Source of the DNA: Candidatus Syntropharchaeum caldarium
Lineage (GTDB): Archaea > Halobacteriota > Syntropharchaeia > Syntropharchaeales > Syntropharchaeaceae
DNA length: 32,000 nt
Direction of reading: 5' to 3'
Assembly (NCBI GenBank): GCA_001766815.1
Contig: LYOS01000001.1
Location: 150,001 to 182,000, forward strand
Both the position numbers and the translations under genes were made by a program. Shown here piece by piece: positions 1 through 8,751 of the stretch. The notes under the pieces were generated by a model. The model was not told the origin of the DNA. It worked only from the letters and a program-made list of their open reading frames with translations, and ran no database searches. The number at the start of each line of letters is the position of its first letter. The first letter of the stretch is position 1.

Positions 1-1127
1 TCGTTGAAGCGGATTCGGATGATGAGATTGCTGAAACCGACGAGCTTAACAATACGTTGAGTGCGACCGTGGACGTGGTTGAAGCAGCAGGACCAAGTGT
101 TACGGTTGATAGCCGTGATGTATCCCCTGGTGAGACGTTCACGATCAGTATAACCGTCGATCCGCAGGGTGAGGAGATTTACGGAGCACAGTATGACCTT
201 TACTTTGATCCAGCAATCTTGCAGGTTGTGAGCCAGACCGCGGGCGACTTCCTGACACAGGACGGTGCAAGCTCAATCGAAGTCGTGAACACGATCAACA
301 ACACCCTTGGAAAGCTTGAGTACGGTGAGACACGGATGGGAGTGGAGAATGGCGTGACTCGGGCAGGCGTTCTCGCCACGATCGAATTCGAGGCTGTTGG
401 AACCGGGTCAACCGGTCTCACGCTATCAAACGTGCTCTTAAGCGATCCAAGTGCACATGAGATTGGAGGAGTCGTGCTGAACGATGGAGCGGTCAACGTA
501 GCAGGGACGCCACCGCCGCCACCACCAGGTGGTGCGATCGTAACGATCCCTGACGTTGGAGCAACAGGAACGCTCACAGTCCCGATCAGAATCGAGAACG
601 TGACAGACGCAGGCGCAATCCATCTGACACTCACCTATGACCCTCGTGTTGTCATCGTATCAACTGCGTGCTGCAACTCAGACTTTGACACACTCTTTGC
701 AAACATCGAGGATGCAGCAAGAGGATCTATTACCATCATCGCATACCAGACCCAAAACCCAGGTCTGAACGGCAATGTGCTCGTTGCAGACGTGACTTTC
801 ATGGCACTCGGCCCCATCGGATCATCGAGCACCCTTAACCTAGAGGTCACAACACTCACCGACGCAACACCAGAGTGCAACCCGATCCCCTACTCAGTCA
901 GCAATGGAAGCTTCACGGTATTCTTAAACGGCGACGTGAACGGTGATGGCAGGGTCGATGCTGCAGACTGCATGTACCTTGCAAAACACCTGCTCGGGGT
1001 CTCAGGTTTTGAGACGATCGTTGAGGTTGCAGCAGATGTCAATGGTAACGGCGAGATCGAGGCATCAGACTGCATGTACCTTGCAAAGCATCTTGCAGGG
1101 ATTGACGGATTTGAGGAGTTGAAGTAG
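1..1127 (+). CDS. Surface protein, C-terminal part (5' end lies outside the window): CARDB end, cohesin, Pro linker, cohesin, dockerin
   Basis: The reading frame is open from nt 3 (VEADSDDEIAETDELNNTL, the end of a CARDB module), so the TTG at 57 in the ORF track is not the real start. Two cohesin-like modules are present (GETFTISITVDPQGEEIYGAQYDLYFDPAILQV...; TLTVPIRIENVTDAGAIHLTLTYDPRVV...), separated by PPPPPPGG. The C-terminus has two Ca-binding dockerin repeats, DVNGDGRVDAADCMYLAKHL and DVNGNGEIEASDCMYLAKHL. Stop TAG at 1125-1127. Confidence 0.85.
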   Translation, partial: VEADSDDEIAETDELNNTLSATVDVVEAAGPSVTVDSRDVSPGETFTISITVDPQGEEIYGAQYDLYFDPAILQVVSQTAGDFLTQDGASSIEVVNTINNTLGKLEYGETRMGVENGVTRAGVLATIEFEAVGTGSTGLTLSNVLLSDPSAHEIGGVVLNDGAVNVAGTPPPPPPGGAIVTIPDVGATGTLTVPIRIENVTDAGAIHLTLTYDPRVVIVSTACCNSDFDTLFANIEDAARGSITIIAYQTQNPGLNGNVLVADVTFMALGPIGSSSTLNLEVTTLTDATPECNPIPYSVSNGSFTVFLNGDVNGDGRVDAADCMYLAKHLLGVSGFETIVEVAADVNGNGEIEASDCMYLAKHLAGIDGFEELK

Positions 1128-1135
1128 AATAAGAA

Positions 1136-4100
1136 ATGGTGAAATGTGTGAGGCGATTGATAGCGGTATTTTTAATCTCGTTATTTATATTCCCGTTGGT
1201 ATCTGCAGATCTCAGAAAGGATCTCACAGATAACCTCCCTCTAAGTGTAAGATCTCCTTCTGGTACTGAGACCCTGATCTGCGGTTACCTGTTTGAGAGG
1301 GGATCTACAGGCAGTGTAAGGATCACAAACCTCAACACCAGTTTAAGCTGGGATGCAAGGCTACTTGAGTCAGAGCCAGACTTCTACTACCTCTATCTCG
1401 ATGAAATTGAGCTTAAAGCAGGAGATATGCTCAGGCTCAACGCAACCTCAGGTGATGAATCGGTCGTATTAATTCATACCGTAAACCAGAGTGAGATCGA
1501 TGAGCATCTGGTGTGGCTTGATATCATCGAGGATCTTGCGATAACAGAGATCACAATACCAAACAGAATTACAAAAGATATCAACACCACTATCCACGCC
1601 GTAATTGAGAATATTGGACTGATACCAGTCGTTGTACCCTTCAATATTACATTCAGCGTTGATGGAGAACTCATAACTACTACCTCTTTTACAGAAGTTC
1701 CTTTAAACGCCAGTGAGAACTTTACCGTAGAATTTTATTGGACTCCTCTGGAATCCGGGATACACAACATCACAATCACTGTGGATCCGAATCATGAAAT
1801 TATATCAGAGACGAATGAATCGAATAATCGAATGAAGAAAAGCGTGTCTGTTGCTGAACTACCTTCGTTTTATGTGCCACTGGACTTTCCCACGATTCAA
1901 GATGCGGTGGATAATGTAACAATTAACGGAACCACGATTTATGTCGCAAGCGGCACGTATAACGAGAATATAATGATTCAAAAGCAGATCACACTTCTGG
2001 GAGCGGATATGAATGATACAATCATAGACGGAGGTGGGAACGATACATTAAGGCTTTTTGCGAATAATTGTGTCATCAGAGGTTTTTCGATAATTAATGG
2101 GAGCACAGGTATAAAGATCGAATCCAATGGCAATAAAATCTTTGAAAATTGGATTTATAACAACTCCTGCGGCGTAAATATCACCGGATTAAATAATACC
2201 GTTTATCATAATAATCTGAATAATGTTCAGAACGGATTTGATACCGGTAATAGTTCGTGGGACGATGGAAGGGAAGGAAACTACTGGAGCGATTGTACCG
2301 GCGATGATTTCGATCTCAATGGGATTGTAGACACGCCTTATGAATGCGGGTGGGTAACGGATCGATATCCTTTAGTTTCTCCATATGTACTGCACAGAGA
2401 CCCGGCAATCGCGTATCTCACTGTCCCCACATCTATTTATGTGAATGAAACGAATACTATCTTTGTGGGCATTGCCAATTACGGCACTTCAGAAGTGGCA
2501 AGCAATCTCTCACTCAAACTCGGTGGCACTATTCTGAACATGACGATTTCTCTACCATATAAGAGCATAAACGCTGTTTATTTCTGCGTGACTCCGAACC
2601 AGATGGGGACAATAAACCTAACAGCGGAGATAGAGGCATGCAATGAAGATTCAAATAGAGCAAACAACCGGATGAGCGTGAATGTTACGGTAATTCCTTC
2701 GCCTTTTAAGCGCCTTTACAATTTTGATAACGAAACAACTATGGCGGAATATTATAAATATCAACTTCCTGAAAGCAGAACGAATGCTCTGGATTACTTA
2801 GCAATGCAGCAGAATTCTGACGGCGGCATCGGTCAGGGTGGCTATTCGACAGATCTGGCTATTATAGCGGTATCATCTGCTGGAGAGAATCCGCAGGAGT
2901 TTGCGAGACTGAATTCGTCGCTTACAGATTATTTAAAAGCGCATCCGCCTCAGCATGACCTGACTTTAATATCTCGCTATGTGCTTGCGATTATCGCTTC
3001 TGGTGAGAATCCGCGTGATTTTGGTGGTAAAAACTATCTTGCGATGATTCAATCATTCTTCGATGGAGAACAGTTTGGAATTGAGAAGAATATCGTGGAT
3101 GATGCGTGGGCTGTGCTTGCACTTACCGGAGCAGGATATGGCAATGACACAGAAATTATGCGAACTGAAAGGAATTATATTCTCAGGTGTCAGAATGAGA
3201 GTGATGGCGGATGGCCGTATTTTGAGAATGGAACGAGCTCAATCGATGTAACTGCGATAGCATTAGAAGCTCTGGTTGCTTCTGGTATAGCTGTGGATAA
3301 TAGTTCGATACAGAATGGCACGAAATATTTGGAAAAAAATCTTGTGAAGAATCAATGGGAAGAGGGGATGGGGCAGACAGACCCACTGCCAGAATCCAAT
3401 CTGAAAAATTATGCTCATTCAGTCCAGGCAATCGTTGCTGTTGGAGGGAATCCGATAGATGGAAGCTGGGATTATTCGCAGAGTGCAGCTACATACTACG
3501 GGATTGAAAACCCATACAACCCGCTACTTCTGCTCTTGGGACTCGAAGAGAAGTCGGGCGATTTTGAAGGTGGATTCGCGTTCACATTTAAAGATTCTTA
3601 TCCCGAACCTAAATGGACATCAATGGCACTCCCCTCGCTGTTCGCAAAGCCATATCCTTCGATGTGCACGTATAGCCGGGTGCTATCAGACATAAAGCCC
3701 ATTCATATAGGGACACGGGCTTGCTACACCAATGTTACAAATATTATCAATGCAACAATCAAGAACAACGGCGGGATATTCAACGTGAGTCTTCTTGTGG
3801 ATGGTGCCGAGGTTGACCGCGCGAGAATTGTGGAGACGAATTCAACTGCATTATCGCGGGTGGAATTCAGATGGCTGCCAGAGAAAGAAGGGGAATATAA
3901 CCTCACCGTTGTGGCAGATTCTGAGAATTCAATAGAAGAGAATAATGAGAGCAATAACTGCATCGGCCGCGTGGTCACTGTGACGAAGCCAGACCTGCAC
4001 CCCAGGACAGAACTGCCAGCATTCTATGTCAATGTGACAAACAGAATAGAAACAGAAGTTTTAGGATACGGCGAGGGATTCAACGTATCGCTTCTTATAA

Positions 4101-7036
4101 ATGGAAGCGTTGTAGATAAAGCCGAGAATATCAGCTCTTATGGCTTTAATAAAACAACGTTATACTGGAAGCCAAACCAAACGGGTAACTACACTCTTAG
4201 ACTCATCGCTGATTCGGAAAACGATGTATTTGAATCCGATGAGAAGAATAACACCATAGAAGAGAATGTCAGTGTAATACTGCCCGACCTATATCCTCAG
4301 AATATAAGCACTATGATACTGTACACCGATACCGAGAACATCATAGATGTCAGCATCAACGGCTCAGCAGAAGGATTTAACGCGACTTTATTTGCAAACG
4401 GAACGATTGCAGATAAAATCGAGAACATTTCATCTTATAACGTGGCGAATATCAGTTTTTCGTGGAACCCCCTGCTGGCAGGTGTTTACAACCTCACAGT
4501 GATGGTAGATGCTGATGATGAGATAGAAGAGACGAACGAAACGAACAACAATCTGAGTCGTATTGTAACCGTAGAGAATCGAGAAGCGCCATACATAAAA
4601 CTACTCGCTCCGATAGGTGGTGAATGCTGGAGCGGTGTGCAGACGATAAAGTGGAGTGCAACCGACCCGAACGGCGATGAACTAATAATAAACATCAGCT
4701 ACAGCCCGGATGCAGGAATAATGTGGCATCCAATTGCAAGCAATCTTGAGAACACAGGCTATTATAATTGGAGCACCGAGTACATGCTGGATGGATATGA
4801 TTATAAGGTAAAAGTAGAAGCATTTGATGGGAATTCTACCTCAGTGGATATCTCAAAAGATGTATTCACAATCTACAACAGGAGATCGTATGAGGGGGCA
4901 CCAAGCTTCCATTATAATGCGGGTTTCTCACTCTCGGAAGCGCCGAATACGAATAAAACTGCGTGGATAACCGAAGATATTGGTGCATGCCCTTCCACTT
5001 CTCTTATTGTTGCCGATGGTAAGGTCTTTGTCTACTGCTATGACAGTGTGAAGGCACTGGACGAATTAAATGGCAGCACAGACCTAAATGGCAGCACAAA
5101 ACCCATCTGGAGCACATCCATAGATAAGGCTGTTTATGGCTCGTGGGCGACTGCGGCATACTACGACGGATCGGTATTCATAGCTTCAGGAAATCATGTT
5201 TACCGAATTAGTGCTAAAGATGGAAAGATAGAATGGAGGTTCCAATTCCCTGATGGGGGGTGCAGTGTGAATAGTGGTCCGTGTGTTGCATACGGAAATG
5301 TATATGTGGGTTCATGGAACGGGGGGCACTATTACTGCTTGAATGACTCAACTGGAGAAATAAAATGGCAATTTCCTCCAAAAGGTGAAAAGAAACTGGA
5401 TCACGCACAATCAACACCAGCAGCACATAACGGAATGGTCTTCTTCGGTGATTTTACAGGCGGACCGAAATCAAAGGTTTTTGCCGTTGATGGACTTACA
5501 GGTGAAGAGATATGGAATCAAACAGTTTCGTGGAGTGTCTGCGGCTCCGTTACGATTGCGCACAATAAGGTATACCTCATGACATATAATTTCTATGGTT
5601 CAGGAGAGTTTTATGCACTCAATGAAAATAACGGAAGCATTGTCTGGCAACATACGATTGCAAGGTCCGATTCTACACCGGCGCATGCGTATGGAAACAT
5701 CTATGTCTGTGGTGGATGCCCAGGTTATGAGCGGTGTAGAACATACTGTCTGAATGATGCAGACGGAGGAAACGAGACCTGGAATGTGCCTGATTGGGGG
5801 ATATGGACATATTCACCGATGGTTGCAGATAAGAAAGTATTTATTGGTAAAGCAGAGGGACCGGGGATGGACAGTATGCTCCCAGCAGGGATGTCTGCTC
5901 GTAATGCCTTTACCGGAGAAGAGATATGGCGTTCAGATCTCGGCGGTGGTTCACCCGCGATTGTGCATGGGAGGGTATATACCGTGGGGGGTGTTAATGC
6001 AACGGGCAGAGTTATCTGTTTCGGCTCTACAAACCAACCAGACCTCGAACTGAGTAATCTCACTACGGTTCCAAAGTCAGATATCTATGTCGGTCAAAAT
6101 GTTTCAATCAATGTGACACTCAGAAATATTGGCTCTGGTAACGCTTCTGCATTTAACGTTTCTTTACGAGTTAATGGTGAGATAGAAGCGGAAAAAAGAA
6201 TTGATGATGGACTTAATGTAAACGTTAGCATGCCTGTGAATTTCTCGTGGACTCCAGTAGAAGCTGGGGAGTATCTTATCATCGTTGAAGCGGATTCGGA
6301 TCACGAAATTACCGAGCAGGTTTCAATGCCAGACAATAATAAGGTTAGTAGACCATTAACGGTAAAAGAGTGGCTGGACTTGGCAGTGGAGGATATTGAT
6401 TATTATCCAACGGAGGTTCACGTTGGGGATATTGTGAATATAACACCCTCTATTACGGCGGTAAACCTCGAAGGGGAAAGTGTTGGGGTTGAGTTTAAAG
6501 TTGATGATGAAAGTAAAGAGACAAAGAGAGGCGTAGTTAACGGAGAGCAGATAACTGTAAACTTCACATGGAATGCTTCGAGTCCTGGCGGGTATAACCT
6601 GACGATAGTCGCCGATCCGGGTGGTGGGATAGATGAAGTTAACGAGACGAATAACGAGACGACAATAGTGGTGGAAGTGATGCCAACGCCAACACCAACA
6701 TCCACTCCAACTCCCGGCTTACCCCACGGTTATGGCGGTGGTGGAGGTGGTGGCTCCGGGATATTTGACTGGGGCGAGTTCTTCGGATCGGGTACAGGCA
6801 GTGAGGGCAATGAAACAGGTGAATTTACGATCCCGATAAATGAGACAGAATCTGTGATTGAAGAAGATTCATCGCGTGTGAATGGCTATCCAATGGGTGA
6901 GGAGACCGGAGGAAGTGCGGGCGGTGGAGGAAAGATCTCTTATATCTGGATCCTCATCGTAACCCTGACGCTTGCCCTTGTGATCTATGGTTACTGGCGA
7001 GAGTCGAGGTTTATCGGTAGGAGGAGGAGAAGATGA
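1136..7036 (+). CDS. Giant (1966 aa) secreted, C-terminally membrane-anchored mosaic surface protein
   Basis: One uninterrupted ORF with an N-terminal signal peptide (MVKCVRRLIAVFLISLFIFPLVSA|DL). CARDB-like modules lie at nt ~1531-1857, ~2400-2700, 3695-4577 (x3) and ~6039-6680 (x2), most ending in a D..N.I.E.NE.NN-type motif. A NosD/PbH1-type right-handed beta-helix spans ~1866-2380 (IYVASGTYNENI, GFSIINGSTGIKIESNGNKIFENWIYNNSCGVNITG). Alpha/alpha-toroid prenyltransferase/terpene-cyclase-like repeats span ~2783-3480 (QQNSDGGIGQGG, CQNESDGGWPY). An Ig-like module spans ~4580-4880. PQQ/BamB-like propeller blades span ~4990-6030 (G.V[YF]......A.D..tGe..W repeated). The PT linker, Gly run, TM helix ISYIWILIVTLTLALVIYGYW and RRRRR tail occupy 6682-7033. 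Confidence 0.9.
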   Translation: MVKCVRRLIAVFLISLFIFPLVSADLRKDLTDNLPLSVRSPSGTETLICGYLFERGSTGSVRITNLNTSLSWDARLLESEPDFYYLYLDEIELKAGDMLRLNATSGDESVVLIHTVNQSEIDEHLVWLDIIEDLAITEITIPNRITKDINTTIHAVIENIGLIPVVVPFNITFSVDGELITTTSFTEVPLNASENFTVEFYWTPLESGIHNITITVDPNHEIISETNESNNRMKKSVSVAELPSFYVPLDFPTIQDAVDNVTINGTTIYVASGTYNENIMIQKQITLLGADMNDTIIDGGGNDTLRLFANNCVIRGFSIINGSTGIKIESNGNKIFENWIYNNSCGVNITGLNNTVYHNNLNNVQNGFDTGNSSWDDGREGNYWSDCTGDDFDLNGIVDTPYECGWVTDRYPLVSPYVLHRDPAIAYLTVPTSIYVNETNTIFVGIANYGTSEVASNLSLKLGGTILNMTISLPYKSINAVYFCVTPNQMGTINLTAEIEACNEDSNRANNRMSVNVTVIPSPFKRLYNFDNETTMAEYYKYQLPESRTNALDYLAMQQNSDGGIGQGGYSTDLAIIAVSSAGENPQEFARLNSSLTDYLKAHPPQHDLTLISRYVLAIIASGENPRDFGGKNYLAMIQSFFDGEQFGIEKNIVDDAWAVLALTGAGYGNDTEIMRTERNYILRCQNESDGGWPYFENGTSSIDVTAIALEALVASGIAVDNSSIQNGTKYLEKNLVKNQWEEGMGQTDPLPESNLKNYAHSVQAIVAVGGNPIDGSWDYSQSAATYYGIENPYNPLLLLLGLEEKSGDFEGGFAFTFKDSYPEPKWTSMALPSLFAKPYPSMCTYSRVLSDIKPIHIGTRACYTNVTNIINATIKNNGGIFNVSLLVDGAEVDRARIVETNSTALSRVEFRWLPEKEGEYNLTVVADSENSIEENNESNNCIGRVVTVTKPDLHPRTELPAFYVNVTNRIETEVLGYGEGFNVSLLINGSVVDKAENISSYGFNKTTLYWKPNQTGNYTLRLIADSENDVFESDEKNNTIEENVSVILPDLYPQNISTMILYTDTENIIDVSINGSAEGFNATLFANGTIADKIENISSYNVANISFSWNPLLAGVYNLTVMVDADDEIEETNETNNNLSRIVTVENREAPYIKLLAPIGGECWSGVQTIKWSATDPNGDELIINISYSPDAGIMWHPIASNLENTGYYNWSTEYMLDGYDYKVKVEAFDGNSTSVDISKDVFTIYNRRSYEGAPSFHYNAGFSLSEAPNTNKTAWITEDIGACPSTSLIVADGKVFVYCYDSVKALDELNGSTDLNGSTKPIWSTSIDKAVYGSWATAAYYDGSVFIASGNHVYRISAKDGKIEWRFQFPDGGCSVNSGPCVAYGNVYVGSWNGGHYYCLNDSTGEIKWQFPPKGEKKLDHAQSTPAAHNGMVFFGDFTGGPKSKVFAVDGLTGEEIWNQTVSWSVCGSVTIAHNKVYLMTYNFYGSGEFYALNENNGSIVWQHTIARSDSTPAHAYGNIYVCGGCPGYERCRTYCLNDADGGNETWNVPDWGIWTYSPMVADKKVFIGKAEGPGMDSMLPAGMSARNAFTGEEIWRSDLGGGSPAIVHGRVYTVGGVNATGRVICFGSTNQPDLELSNLTTVPKSDIYVGQNVSINVTLRNIGSGNASAFNVSLRVNGEIEAEKRIDDGLNVNVSMPVNFSWTPVEAGEYLIIVEADSDHEITEQVSMPDNNKVSRPLTVKEWLDLAVEDIDYYPTEVHVGDIVNITPSITAVNLEGESVGVEFKVDDESKETKRGVVNGEQITVNFTWNASSPGGYNLTIVADPGGGIDEVNETNNETTIVVEVMPTPTPTSTPTPGLPHGYGGGGGGGSGIFDWGEFFGSGTGSEGNETGEFTIPINETESVIEEDSSRVNGYPMGEETGGSAGGGGKISYIWILIVTLTLALVIYGYWRESRFIGRRRRR
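3695..4577 (+). repeat. Three tandem CARDB-coding modules, period 294 nt (98 aa), inside the giant gene
   Basis: Module boundaries PDLHP (nt 3989) and PDLYP (nt 4283) are exactly 294 nt apart. The modules align at protein level, for example GFNVSLLINGSVVDKAENISSY versus GFNATLFANGTIADKIENISSY. They are diverged and are not recent DNA copies. Confidence 0.8.
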
Positions 7037-7071
7037 TGAGTATCGACAGGGAAGAGAACACCTGTAGCTCA

Positions 7072-7263
7072 TCAGTAAGCCTCGTCGTGATGAACGAGCC
7101 TGTCGAAGATGAGAACCCTGAGATTCTTGAAACGATGGATCATCTCCTCGTCACAGGCAGAAATCTGGTTTATCTTCATTTGAACTCTTCTAAAAAATGC
7201 CATGTCTTTCTTTTTGATCTTTATCATCGTTCGTTTGAGTTCGTCGGAGATGCAGATCTTCAT
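7072..7263 (-). CDS. Small hypothetical protein (63 aa), N-terminus paralogous to the upstream RHH-like gene
   Basis: Its ATG overlaps the stop of the upstream gene in an ATGA arrangement (7260-7263). The N-terminus KICISDELKRTMIKI parallels KVVIPDKLKERMSRI of the neighbour. No family was recognised. Confidence 0.4.
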   Translation of the reverse strand: MKICISDELKRTMIKIKKKDMAFFRRVQMKINQISACDEEMIHRFKNLRVLIFDRLVHHDEAY

Positions 7264-7568
7264 AATTCATTGCACCATTTATCGAACTCTTCCAGGCTCA
7301 TGGGCTTTCTCTTACCGGATTCAAGTTCTTTCAATACCTCCTCTGTAGATCTAACGACTTCCTTAGCCAGAGAATCTTTGACCTCCTTCTCATCATCCGG
7401 TATTTCAGATATTTCAGCAATTTTCCTTCCCATCTCAAGTTCTTCTATATCATGTAATCTTTCAGAGATAGCTTTTAATGCTACTGCTGGCCAATCAACC
7501 CAATCTATTCTGGACATTCGCTCCTTCAGCTTGTCAGGTATCACAACCTTTATCTTTGCCATTCCCAT
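7260..7568 (-). CDS. Small charged protein (102 aa), putative ribbon-helix-helix DNA-binding or antitoxin-like protein
   Basis: The N-terminus has a beta-strand then helices pattern (KIKVVIPDKLKERMSRI..PAVALKAISERL), followed by an acidic coiled region. A TATA-like box lies ~26 nt upstream (7594-7603), which fits a leaderless mRNA. The antisense 208-aa ORF is Ser-rich low complexity and was rejected. Confidence 0.6.
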   Translation of the reverse strand: MGMAKIKVVIPDKLKERMSRIDWVDWPAVALKAISERLHDIEELEMGRKIAEISEIPDDEKEVKDSLAKEVVRSTEEVLKELESGKRKPMSLEEFDKWCNEL

Positions 7569-7593
7569 CGCCTATGGCTATATCGGTCATTCG

Positions 7594-7603
7594 TTTATAA
7601 ATA
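7594..7603. promoter_or_regulatory. Near-palindromic TATA box TTTATAAATA in the divergent intergenic region (RHH-like gene / ExbB-like operon)
   Basis: The box is centred ~30 nt from the minus-strand ATG (7568), consistent with a leaderless transcript. It is ~57 nt upstream of the plus-strand ATG (7656), which has its own GGAGG at 7646-7650. Confidence 0.45.
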
Positions 7604-7655
7604 GCTTCTCACAGATGGAGAACTCAACGTTTACTGTTAAACAAAGGAGGAAAAT

Positions 7656-8252
7656 ATGATAGATATATTTGCAACGCTCCAGTCATCGATATACTACATC
7701 TCAACATACCTTCTGTATCCAGTGATCATTGCACTGCTTATCTGTGTTGGCTTCATCCTCGTTGACACAGGGTCTTTTCTCTACGAGATATACAGAAGAA
7801 AGAGGTTACACTTTGAGTTTGAGGATGAAGTTATCTCAGGCAGGTTTGTTGCGCTATTCATGAAAGAGCTTGAGCACATGGATCATGAAGATAGATACTT
7901 TGATCTCAAGCTCCAGAAGCTCCTGAATGATATGGAGTATCTCATATCAAAGCGGCTTGAGCTGACGAAGCTCATATCAAGGATTGGTCCCATGTTCGGT
8001 CTTATGGGAACTTTAATCCCGATGGGACCTGCTTTGATAGGGCTTACTCACGGTGACATCGAGACCCTTGCAGATAACCTCATCATCGCATTCGGGACAA
8101 CAGTCGTGGGGCTTCTGGTCGGTGCGGTATCTTACTCGATCGCGATGGTCAGAACGCGCTGGTATGATCAGGAGATGGATGATATGGAGTTTGTATGTGA
8201 GATTGTGACGGGAGGTAGTCAGGATGAAATACATGAAGAAGAGAAGAGGTAA
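7656..8252 (+). CDS. MotA/TolQ/ExbB-family proton-channel protein (3 TM)
   Basis: There is an N-terminal TM helix (YLLYPVIIALLICVGFILV) and a cytoplasmic helical region. The C-terminal TM pair carries family motifs IGPMFGLMGTLIPMGPAL and AFGTTVVGLLVGAVSYSIA. A strong RBS (GGAGG) sits 5 nt upstream of the ATG. Confidence 0.85.
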   Translation: MIDIFATLQSSIYYISTYLLYPVIIALLICVGFILVDTGSFLYEIYRRKRLHFEFEDEVISGRFVALFMKELEHMDHEDRYFDLKLQKLLNDMEYLISKRLELTKLISRIGPMFGLMGTLIPMGPALIGLTHGDIETLADNLIIAFGTTVVGLLVGAVSYSIAMVRTRWYDQEMDDMEFVCEIVTGGSQDEIHEEEKR

Positions 8253-8568
8253 GAAGAAGCGATCCTTTGAGGAGGATCCGATGAGTGGTGTTGCAAATCT
8301 ATTCGATGTTGCGATGGTCTTTGCGGTTGCGCTTCTGATAGCGCTTGTATCTTCCTACCATATTCAGGAGCTTCTTGATCCGACCAGGGATATCACAATC
8401 GTCAAGAACCCTGGACAGCCTGATATGCAGGTCATCGTGAAGGAGGGGAAGGAGATAAAGACGCTGAATGTGACAGAGGAGATGAGTGAAGTTGAGATTG
8501 CAGGAACTGTTGGAACGATCTACAGGACACCGGATGGTGGAATGGTATATGTGCCTGAGGGTGGATGA
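8224..8568 (+). CDS. ExbD/TolR-like single-pass partner (DUF2149-type)
   Basis: It has a basic N-terminus, then the TM helix ANLFDVAMVFAVALLIALV with Asp28 (nt 8305-8307) in an ExbD-like 'xDV' context, then a short beta-rich C-terminal domain. GGAGGT at 8211-8216 lies 7 nt before the ATG at 8224. The gene overlaps the ExbB-like gene by 29 nt. Confidence 0.75.
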   Translation: MKYMKKRRGKKKRSFEEDPMSGVANLFDVAMVFAVALLIALVSSYHIQELLDPTRDITIVKNPGQPDMQVIVKEGKEIKTLNVTEEMSEVEIAGTVGTIYRTPDGGMVYVPEGG

Positions 8569-8751
8569 GATGAGATCATTATCCATAAAAATAAATTAAA
8601 AAAGTTCAAAATGTAGAATCCGCGACTGACAGATTTTCAAAAGCTTAAGGGTGTGGTAAGGAATAAGAGGTAAAAGATTGGCAGAAACAGCCTGGAAAAA
8701 CATATATACATTGACCGAGTACTGATGTTTTATTAATGAGAAGGTTACTTT

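Follow-up and report, generated by a model that had tools for sequence, protein, structure and literature searches.

In bacteria, ion-driven 5:2 motors (Mot, Ton, Tol, Gld) are regarded as devices by which energy passes from the inner membrane to a structure further out, and the locus analysed here raises the question of what a motor of this kind does in an archaeon with a single membrane. The locus occupies the first 8.6 kb of a 32,000-nt stretch of the genome of the butane-oxidising archaeon Candidatus Syntropharchaeum caldarium (contig LYOS01000001.1, positions 150,001 to 182,000 of the forward strand; this whole stretch is the window below, and its first letter is position 1). Here the genes for an ExbB-like protein and a DUF2149 protein stand downstream of a gene for a giant surface protein of 1966 amino acids (aa). 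An initial annotation, made from the letters alone, treated four elements within these 8.6 kb as one assembly: a cohesin/dockerin protein, the giant, two small putative regulators and an ExbB/ExbD-like motor. The coordinates and the gene order are as it gave them, but according to synteny only the giant and the motor belong together. The conserved core is a three-gene unit composed of a CARDB/propeller giant, a MotA/ExbB-like gene and a DUF2149 gene, and the adjacency of giant and motor is far above chance, because it is conserved across orders. We consider it moderately probable that the motor energises the giant through a C-terminal segment of the latter, termed the handle, with the capture of a chelate as the most likely purpose.

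Conservation of the giant-motor unit

The giant is encoded on the plus strand at 1136..7036 (1966 codons), its start lying 8 nt past the preceding stop, and it has the single C-terminal transmembrane (TM) helix and cationic tail that had been noted initially. Directly downstream and co-oriented with this handle-bearing gene lie those of the 198-aa ExbB/TolQ-like stator subunit (7656..8252, plus strand; PF01618, three TM helices, preceded by a GGAGG ribosome-binding site, RBS) and of the 114-aa DUF2149 protein (8224..8568, plus strand; PF09919), the first 29 nt of which lie within the end of the ExbB-like gene.

The same arrangement recurs in other genomes. In Ca. S. butanivorans BOX1 the motor pair is 73% identical to that of the window, and a 2514-aa giant ends exactly at the start of the ExbB-like gene. 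A CARDB gene abuts the motor on three Syntrophoarchaeum-like metagenome contigs and in a fourth lineage, the contigs P0007 and P0009 being among these cases, and the genes downstream differ each time. Among anaerobic methanotrophic archaea (ANME), the giant of ANME-2c (Methanogaster, 2135 aa) overlaps the motor by 4 nt, as does that of Argoarchaeum (2256 aa); one further lineage has a 4119-aa giant upstream of the pair, with a gap of 55 nt, and the giant-motor-DUF2149 unit is also found in ANME-1 and others. The overlap of stop and start is kept across two archaeal classes, and the flanking genes differ in nearly every lineage. The synteny check in related genomes that had been proposed with the initial annotation thus bears out the pairing of the giant with the motor, but not the inclusion of the cohesin/dockerin protein or of the small genes.

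A search with the motor profile yielded 80 loci from GTDB species representatives, 74 of them with a usable motor sequence. The upstream gene encodes a giant or a similar TM-tailed protein in 19 of the 74, and DUF2162 in 31, usually with a CobN-like gene beside the pair. A quick maximum-likelihood tree groups the archaeal motors that are giant-linked in a single clade of 19 rows, with a support of 88 in the Shimodaira-Hasegawa-like approximate likelihood ratio test (SH-aLRT); the few rows of this clade that lack a giant are mostly contig edges or glitches in the calling of open reading frames. The motors linked to DUF2162 and CobN lie on the other side of the tree (SH-aLRT 90), and the label "giant" changes 5 times on it, compared with 17 changes expected when labels are shuffled. 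Both kinds of motor coexist in single genomes.

The giant and its C-terminal handle

From the N-terminus onwards, the giant consists of a Sec-type signal peptide, CARDB, a NosD-like beta-helix, CARDB, an alpha/alpha toroid, CARDB repeats, an immunoglobulin (Ig)-like domain, a PQQ-like beta-propeller, further CARDB repeats and the handle. The Pfam and NCBIfam matches behind this order comprise six CARDB units, a PQQ_2 propeller, a squalene-cyclase-like alpha/alpha toroid, whose nearest solved relatives are squalene-hopene cyclases, and the NosD-like region; Pfam detected no cohesin or dockerin module in the handle-bearing protein. The C-terminus is one TM helix plus the tail RESRFIGRRRRR, and the final residues, ...GGGGKISYIWILIVTLTLALVIYGYWRESRFIGRRRRR, make up the TM helix and the cationic tail.

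Over ~1600 aa the giant is colinear with the motor-adjacent giants of ANME-2c, Argoarchaeum and ANME-1, at 28-39% identity. Its last ~150 aa, comprising the last CARDB unit and the handle, are 66% identical to those of the Ca. S. butanivorans giant, and the remainder of that protein matches in scattered pieces of 27-38% identity, at the level of CARDB repeats. Since only the last CARDB unit and the handle are shared, the anchor stays with the motor even though the ectodomain has been replaced, and to judge from these identities the anchor is constrained beyond mere anchoring.

The handle comprises the last 95 aa (6749..7033, plus strand) and was delimited by alignment across motor-adjacent giants. 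In the window it reads as a Gly-rich linker, IPINETES, NGYPMGEE, a Gly run, a TM helix (~6935-6997) ending in YGYW, the pair RE and an Arg-rich cytoplasmic tail. Across lineages the order is a Gly-rich linker, P-[IV]-N-x-[ST], G-[YFH]-P-[MF]-G, a Gly run, the TM helix, in which a Gly close to the cytoplasmic end is invariant, [KR]-E and a basic tail; in the alignment (A3) N31, G46, G59, G61 and G81 are invariant and E85 is nearly so.

Profile searches found this element to be rare. The genome of the window contains one copy, and among 1.84e9 representative proteins there are 36 matches only (E <= 1e-3), in proteins of up to 4597 aa; nearly all of them lie at the extreme C-terminus, including every single-stretch match in long proteins. 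A search of all 79 genomes of the class, made independently of the motor, returned 27 matches, spread over 21 genomes and 12 of the 22 genera. The next gene is ExbB-like in 20 of these 27 cases, within ~210 nt; the 617-nt distance in the window is due to an insert of 606 bp, described below. All 14 matches with E < 1e-25 have an ExbB-like gene directly downstream. The window handle matches with E 9.8e-34, a value obtained for one of the 14 sequences from which the profile was built. Outside the class, no handle was detected among the ~335 genomes that represent other families in a phylum-wide sample of 401, the carriers from Methanosarcinales having come by routes other than this sample. On these counts the handle appears to be a conserved and rare module, almost confined to genes that precede such motors, and the way in which handle and motor are conserved fits a motor acting on the anchor of the giant.

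A conserved C-terminal tail could also be a sorting signal, with the motor powering translocation, passage through the S-layer or covalent attachment of the giant, in the manner of the PorLM/GldLM motor, which drives the secretion of proteins with the type IX C-terminal domain, and with processing by an archaeosortase as a possible step. The handle has the tripartite layout of exosortase/archaeosortase signals, four archaeosortase-like genes are present elsewhere in the genome, and in the ANME-2c Methanogaster an Exosortase_EpsH-family gene directly follows DUF2149 (L045:9109-10281). That locus is the only labelled giant-linked one, the window included, with an archaeosortase gene adjacent. 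Moreover, no known CTERM model of Pfam or NCBIfam matches the tail of the giant, PGF-CTERM tails fail the handle profile, and the GYPMG motif lies ~15 residues before the TM helix, behind the Gly run, unlike the arrangement in PGF-CTERM. One signal per genome with a motor dedicated to it would be an unusually costly sorting system, and we regard an aid to export or anchoring as quite improbable. A common sorting signal was rejected, because the handle is present as a single copy in the genome and is unlike PGF-CTERM tails.

The motor proteins

The 198-aa protein matches the MotA_ExbB family (PF01618) with 46.4 bits (cut-off 22.9; E 4e-12) and was also recovered in a whole-genome profile search; a profile of the ExbB-like proteins matches E. 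coli ExbB (5sv0) with E 0.001. Its residues Thr119 and Thr149, invariant in 19 sequences, align with Thr148 and Thr181 of 5sv0, which we take to be the polar ion-path residues in TM2 and TM3 of E. coli ExbB. Glu176 of ExbB is not conserved, the position being occupied by Ile. The AlphaFold2 (AF2) model, with a mean predicted local distance difference test score (pLDDT) of 82, contains long helices at 4-54, 82-131 and 135-185, and the top 45 Foldseek matches in the PDB are all ExbB or TolQ chains (TM-scores 0.35-0.55). In the Syntrophoarchaeum clade the cytoplasmic loop of the ExbB-like proteins is shorter by ~29 residues than in all other members (alignment A1, columns ~60-88).

The initial annotation described an ExbB/ExbD-like motor, and its first half is confirmed by the MotA_ExbB match; the partner, however, is a DUF2149 protein with no Pfam match to the ExbD/TolR family (PF02472). 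The 114-aa protein matches DUF2149 (PF09919) with 105 bits (E 2.6e-30) and has a basic N-terminal tail, one TM helix and an external domain of ~70 aa. The TM segment, ANLFDVAMVF, contains Asp28, and N25, L26, F27 and D28 are invariant (alignment A2); this Asp resembles the essential Asp of ExbD, TolR and MotB. The protein thus has a single N-in TM helix with a conserved Asp and is encoded directly after an ExbB-type gene, as ExbD and TolR are expected to be, and by position and topology it is the ExbD/TolR counterpart. Homology to ExbD was sought separately and the candidate rejected, as nothing significant emerged: a 12-sequence DUF2149 profile retrieved no ExbD or TolR chain from the PDB, the best match being a non-significant one to ComEA, and the low-confidence AF2 model (pLDDT 63), in which the external domain is all-beta, has a best Foldseek match of E 1.0, with no ExbD or TolR among the matches. 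In the literature DUF2149 appears solely as HmuV of the hmu operon of Bacteroidota and as arCOG03208 "linked to TolQ".

Sister motors beside CobN/HmuS-like proteins

The genome that contains the window encodes a second motor pair (C3:~43000-54400; L005:4259-15368, minus strand), which belongs to a CbiM-CbiQ-CbiO-(DsbD_2-like)-DUF2162-ExbB-DUF2149-CobN-CobQ cluster. This cluster is the archaeal counterpart of HmuS/T/U/V; genes for DUF2162 and for a CobN-like protein are present at this paralogous locus, and neither was found in the window. The CobN/HmuS-like proteins beside DUF2162-type motors have a signal peptide, and their tail consists of G-x-x-M-E, a TM helix in which a Gly close to the end is conserved, and RRR. 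Aligned with hhalign, the handle and these tails match over 45 columns with a probability of 93-94% (E 1e-7 to 4e-7); the controls, namely PGF-CTERM tails, tails from Thermoleophilia, and reversed and column-shuffled sequences, reach at most 16% against the handle profile. Two unrelated ectodomains therefore share a paralogous motor together with the tail, which is the best comparative argument that the motor recognises the tail. The match to the CobN tails is supportive, not conclusive, because profiles of TM helices can inflate scores.

It is possible, though we would not call it probable, that the handle is a general docking element by which ExbB/DUF2149 motors of the HmuU/HmuV type directly power C-terminally anchored extracytoplasmic proteins, that is, the archaeal giants as well as the CobN/HmuS-type (de)chelatases of other archaea and of Bacteroidota. 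Should this prove true, there would be a TonB-independent class of energised surface machines that work without an outer membrane, and HmuU/HmuV of gut bacteria would act on HmuS instead of, or besides, the HmuR receptor.

Related arrangements were seen in further lineages. A CobN gene of Brocadiaceae (L117:129-4322), those of the loci L064, L069, L111 and L126-L128, and those of Bacteroidales likewise encode a signal peptide and a C-terminal TM anchor after a motif of the G-x-x-M-E type; in L117 no DUF2162 intervenes, and the anchored CobN immediately precedes the ExbB-like gene. In Thermoleophilia and other Actinomycetota, which are monoderm (L062, L076, L094, L095, L100, L108, L112 and L121), an ExbB-like protein of ~335 aa and a DUF2149 protein of ~195 aa follow an exported protein of 600-720 aa. 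In this protein a prenyltransferase/squalene-cyclase-like alpha/alpha toroid is joined by a Pro/Thr-rich linker to a single C-terminal TM helix, past which extends a cytoplasmic tail of ~45 aa. The toroid is a domain common to it and to the archaeal giants; its tail fails the handle profile.

Proposed function of the unit

From the gene order, its conservation, the motifs and the folds described above we infer physical contact between giant and motor, coupling of energy and a cargo. The giant would be exported by means of its N-terminal signal peptide and then retained by its single C-terminal TM helix, which would leave the N-terminus outside the membrane and the C-terminus inside. The ExbB-like and DUF2149 proteins would form an ion-conducting stator, by analogy with ExbB5-ExbD2, in which the path could run via Asp28 of DUF2149 and Thr119/Thr149. 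The handle would dock on this stator, so that the giant would carry its own TonB/TolA-like anchor in reversed orientation, and the flow of ions would be converted into force or a conformational change in the ectodomain of ~1900 residues. The purpose is less certain: most likely it would be the energised capture and release of some chelate that is scarce, for instance an iron chelate, a corrinoid or a metallo-tetrapyrrole of another kind, and this might then be passed to a binding protein of the BtuF/FhuD type and an ATP-binding cassette (ABC) importer.

The neighbours of the unit, and the sister system with its CobN and cobalt-transport genes, point weakly to the acquisition of chelates or tetrapyrroles. 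At three ANME-1-type loci, DUF2149 is followed by a gene for a Peripla_BP_2 protein with PGF-CTERM, and in one of them (L067) then by one for a FecCD permease; a radical S-adenosylmethionine (radical-SAM) gene lies downstream at two ANME-1-type loci (L080 and L087). The closest relatives of the window have a truncated Peripla_BP_2 gene (140-149 aa) right after DUF2149 (L129:973-1422 and L130:1120-1542), and in Argoarchaeum a CbiA/CobQ-like gene is found downstream of the module. Anaerobic consumers of methane, ethane and butane depend heavily on nickel and cobalt tetrapyrroles and live in tight consortia.

Life in consortia could also call for adhesion, in which case the giant, with its CARDB repeats and propeller, would be an adhesin for contact between the syntrophic cells, and the motor would use the ion gradient to hold, tension or release it, as in SiiA/SiiB-SiiE, or to move it, as in GldLM-SprB, with no import of cargo. 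Every named lineage that bears the handle is a syntrophic oxidiser of methane or alkanes; an ectodomain that can be swapped while the handle is kept would look like a variable adhesin on a constant base; and neither the window genome nor the ANME-2c locus has transporter genes beside the module. A precedent exists in SiiAB, a proton channel that controls the retention of SiiE (PMC6272769). On the other hand, binding-protein and permease genes recur by the module in ANME-1-type loci and persist in truncated form in the closest relatives, the sister motors serve CobN/HmuS-like enzymes and no adhesins, and the architecture of the ectodomain is kept across orders at 28-39% identity, which is atypical of fast-evolving adhesins. 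Control of adhesion seems to us unlikely, and we continue to prefer the reading of a motor that energises the giant for chelate capture.

Several observations weigh against this preferred reading. The genome of the window has no binding-protein or permease gene after the motor, and nucleotide homology to the relatives, compared over 8565-8751, ends at the DUF2149 stop; as the next gene is that of a TrkA_N-DHH-DHHA1 protein, a rearrangement breakpoint lies directly behind the module. The toroid was considered as a cobalamin binder and rejected, its match to the Cobalamin_bind family being non-significant (E 0.22). DUF2149 is not demonstrably ExbD-like outside its TM segment. The helix of the handle runs N-out/C-in, opposite to the anchors of TonB and TolA, so that homology with these anchors is not possible. 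The tree, moreover, stems from a quick search with moderate support, and related genomes are non-independent samples. Within the giant-linked motor clade, a motor of 79% identity (L043) has a divergent, peptidase C39-like neighbour, and in the Methanosarcinales metagenome-assembled genome (MAG) AUK006 a 433-aa NosD-like beta-helix protein with PGF-CTERM precedes the motor with a 4-nt overlap (L053:1893-3194), from which it follows that motors of this clade can pair with other anchored surface proteins. Finally, 7 of the 27 handle genes have no motor directly downstream.

The last figure would suit the view that giant and motor are merely co-transcribed, the motor serving a binding protein, a transporter or the S-layer and the tail being a lineage-specific anchor only, as would the fact that the module has tolerated an insertion that breaks translational coupling in the window genome. 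Such a view leaves unexplained why the stop/start overlap is conserved across two archaeal classes with flanks that differ in nearly every lineage, why conservation of the handle equals that of the motor although the ectodomain is replaceable, and why a related tail occurs on the unrelated CobN-like partners of paralogous motors. Adjacency without direct coupling appears very improbable to us. If, instead, the motor does energise the giant, the unit would reveal a means by which archaea bring energy to processes outside the membrane. DUF2149 (arCOG03208) would then acquire a function, as might HmuU/HmuV of gut Bacteroidota, and the unit would point to a surface machine common to anaerobic consumers of methane, ethane and butane.

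Genes outside the conserved unit

The cohesin/dockerin protein of the initial annotation corresponds to an open frame on the plus strand that enters from the left edge of the window and stops at 1127 (1..1127; frame 3..1127); it encodes a CARDB end, two cohesins, a poly-Pro linker and a dockerin. The domains are real, with two cohesin matches (Pfam Cohesin 1.9e-24, 86.8 bits) and one to Dockerin_1 (1.8e-14, 54.1 bits), all above the family cut-offs, but the frame is only the last 374 aa of a second, 2090-aa giant, the gene of which starts at C1:144855, 5.1 kb before the window. The part of this paralogue before the window has the same architecture as the adjoining 1966-aa giant. The two tandem genes (C1:144855-151127 and window 1136-~6240) are in fact 100% identical over their first ~1700 codons (5.1 kb), past which the paralogue ends in cohesin-cohesin-dockerin and the 1966-aa giant in two CARDB units plus the membrane anchor. 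The paralogue is accordingly chimeric, with the same ectodomain and a cohesin/dockerin tail in place of the handle, and it is specific to the window genome.

Upstream there are five further genes with cohesin and/or dockerin modules, and the layout of the paralogue is consistent with an unequal crossover in which CARDB units of the giant recombined with those of an upstream 639-aa cohesin/dockerin gene. Alternatively, the identical 5.1-kb copies could be an assembly artefact or two joined strain variants. The contigs of relatives break in the region of the tandem giants. The possibility that cohesin and dockerin form part of the module was examined by tblastn with both cohesins and the dockerin against 91 related loci and rejected: the only matches were in one type-1 and one unclassified locus, and none was found in the other giant-linked loci. 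The cohesin/dockerin paralogue is on these searches a lineage-specific neighbour outside the conserved module.

Between giant and motor lies an inserted cassette of 606 bp (7038..7643), on either side of which stands an imperfect repeat, ~17 nt long, of the RBS/start region (7021-7037 and 7644-7660). It is absent from the two relatives of ~97% nucleotide identity (L129 and L130), in which the giant reads ...IGRRRKI-TGA and the TGA overlaps the ATG of the motor; both flanks of their junction align to the window, overlapping by 17 nt. Together with the 0-nt gap between giant and motor in Ca. S. butanivorans, these junctions indicate that the ancestral state is translational coupling of the two genes.

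The insert encodes two proteins on the minus strand, in genes that overlap by 4 nt. The 102-aa protein (7260..7568) has 46 homologues, mostly from ANME-1 and ~70% identical, which carry the precomputed Pfam assignment PF26688 (RHH_12), and it matches the NCBIfam VapB model weakly (2.7e-6, below cut-off). The 63-aa protein (7072..7263) is 52% identical, with a 23-aa internal gap, to the 86-aa partner of the RHH_12 genes of ANME-1, which in turn matches ParE_toxin weakly (6.6e-4; 20.6 bits, cut-off 23). Both had initially been described as ribbon-helix-helix (RHH)-like putative regulators. For the antitoxin-like 102-aa protein the RHH assignment agrees with its homologues, but the 63-aa protein is a remnant of a ParE/RelE-like toxin. 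Because it lacks 23 core residues of its 86-aa relatives the cassette is decayed and does not constitute an intact type II toxin-antitoxin pair. In all, the small genes are best described as a decayed RHH_12/ParE-like toxin-antitoxin cassette, which has been inserted recently. A role as regulators of the locus was rejected, since the insert that carries them is missing from close relatives and the 63-aa protein is what a deletion has left of a ParE-like one.

The motor had also been described as divergently promoted. The small genes do lie on the minus strand, divergent from the motor, but this layout is secondary, because it comes from the insert that the 97%-identical relatives lack. A TATA-box-like element, TTTATAAATA, read directly from the sequence inside the insert (7594..7603), is located between the start of the RHH_12 gene (7568) and that of the motor (7656) and could be a bidirectional archaeal promoter that now drives the motor; the inserted cassette probably supplies the present promoter of the motor. 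Comparable cassettes were observed in ANME-1, where intact, divergent pairs of RHH_12 and 86-aa ParE-like genes (L134:3001-3563 and L135:3001-3563) adjoin genes for PQQ-propeller surface proteins; one of these proteins contains a Peripla_BP_2 domain as well. The cohesin/dockerin cluster of the window genome includes a partial copy of the RHH_12 N-terminus (C1:140006-140243).

Beyond 8568, Pfam matches and translations show a TrkA_N-DHH-DHHA1 protein. It is followed by a DNA polymerase II small subunit, a CofC-like protein and ribosomal protein S10, which were assigned from translations alone and which we take to be housekeeping genes.

Comparison with known systems

The PorLM/GldLM motor of type IX secretion belongs to the same broad class as the motor described here and is tied to very large surface proteins (SprB) with a conserved C-terminal module. 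Its proteins are, however, unrelated in sequence to those of the window, and type IX secretion needs an outer-membrane translocon.

In SiiA/SiiB-SiiE of Salmonella pathogenicity island 4 (SPI-4), a MotAB/ExbBD-like channel is encoded together with a giant repetitive surface protein, which it controls: SiiAB is a proton channel that governs the retention of the 595-kDa SiiE (PMC6272769). In contrast to the archaeal giant, SiiE has no TM anchor of its own but is a substrate of type I secretion that stays in its secretion channel; the systems are non-orthologous, and the host is diderm.

The Hmu system, represented by hmuYRSTUV of Bacteroidota and by the archaeal DUF2162-ExbB-DUF2149-CobN clusters, is closer. 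HmuU/HmuV-type motors belong to the same MotA_ExbB and DUF2149 families, and the CobN/HmuS-like proteins have a signal peptide and a handle-related C-terminal tail. The pair in the window differs in that it falls in a separate clade and in that a CARDB/propeller giant replaces the DUF2162 (HmuT-like) and CobN genes. The energising of the HmuR receptor by HmuU/HmuV is only an assumption in the literature (PMC12583661).

The Tol-Pal system resembles the window through TolQ, chains of which are among the best structural matches of the ExbB-like model. TolA, however, is N-terminally anchored and acts on the outer membrane and Pal, neither of which exists in this archaeon. According to their titles, the structures 9ddn and 9ddo (TolQRA and TonB-ExbBD) hold the partner together with the pentamer, and one title places TonB on a single ExbB chain.

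With the Ton system the unit shares an ExbB-family subunit of three TM helices with two pore threonines; a small single-pass partner with a basic N-terminal tail and an essential-type Asp in its helix; and a third single-pass, largely extracytoplasmic protein that is encoded alongside and is the candidate receiver of force. The likeness of the giant to TonB/TolA-type force transducers, put forward in the initial annotation, holds as a functional analogy only: it has no N-terminal anchor with an SHLS-type motif, and its Pfam and NCBIfam matches include neither a TonB nor a TolA domain. Unlike the Ton system, the archaeal module operates without an outer membrane, a TonB-dependent receptor or TonB; its third protein is a giant of ~2000 aa with a C-terminal anchor running N-out/C-in, the reverse of TonB; and its small partner is DUF2149, which lies outside the ExbD Pfam family and shows no ExbD-like fold in the low-confidence model of its external domain. 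In the open-access literature we found no paper on the module, and none that connects ExbB-type proteins with CARDB giants or with surface proteins of archaea. The motor families are known; what we did not find described is that in single-membrane archaea they are coupled, in a conserved manner, to a giant with a C-terminal anchor. The pairing of giant and motor across methane- and alkane-oxidising archaea suggests that a protein outside a cell lacking an outer membrane may be powered without TonB, by way of a coupling element that appears to be built into the C-terminus of the giant itself.

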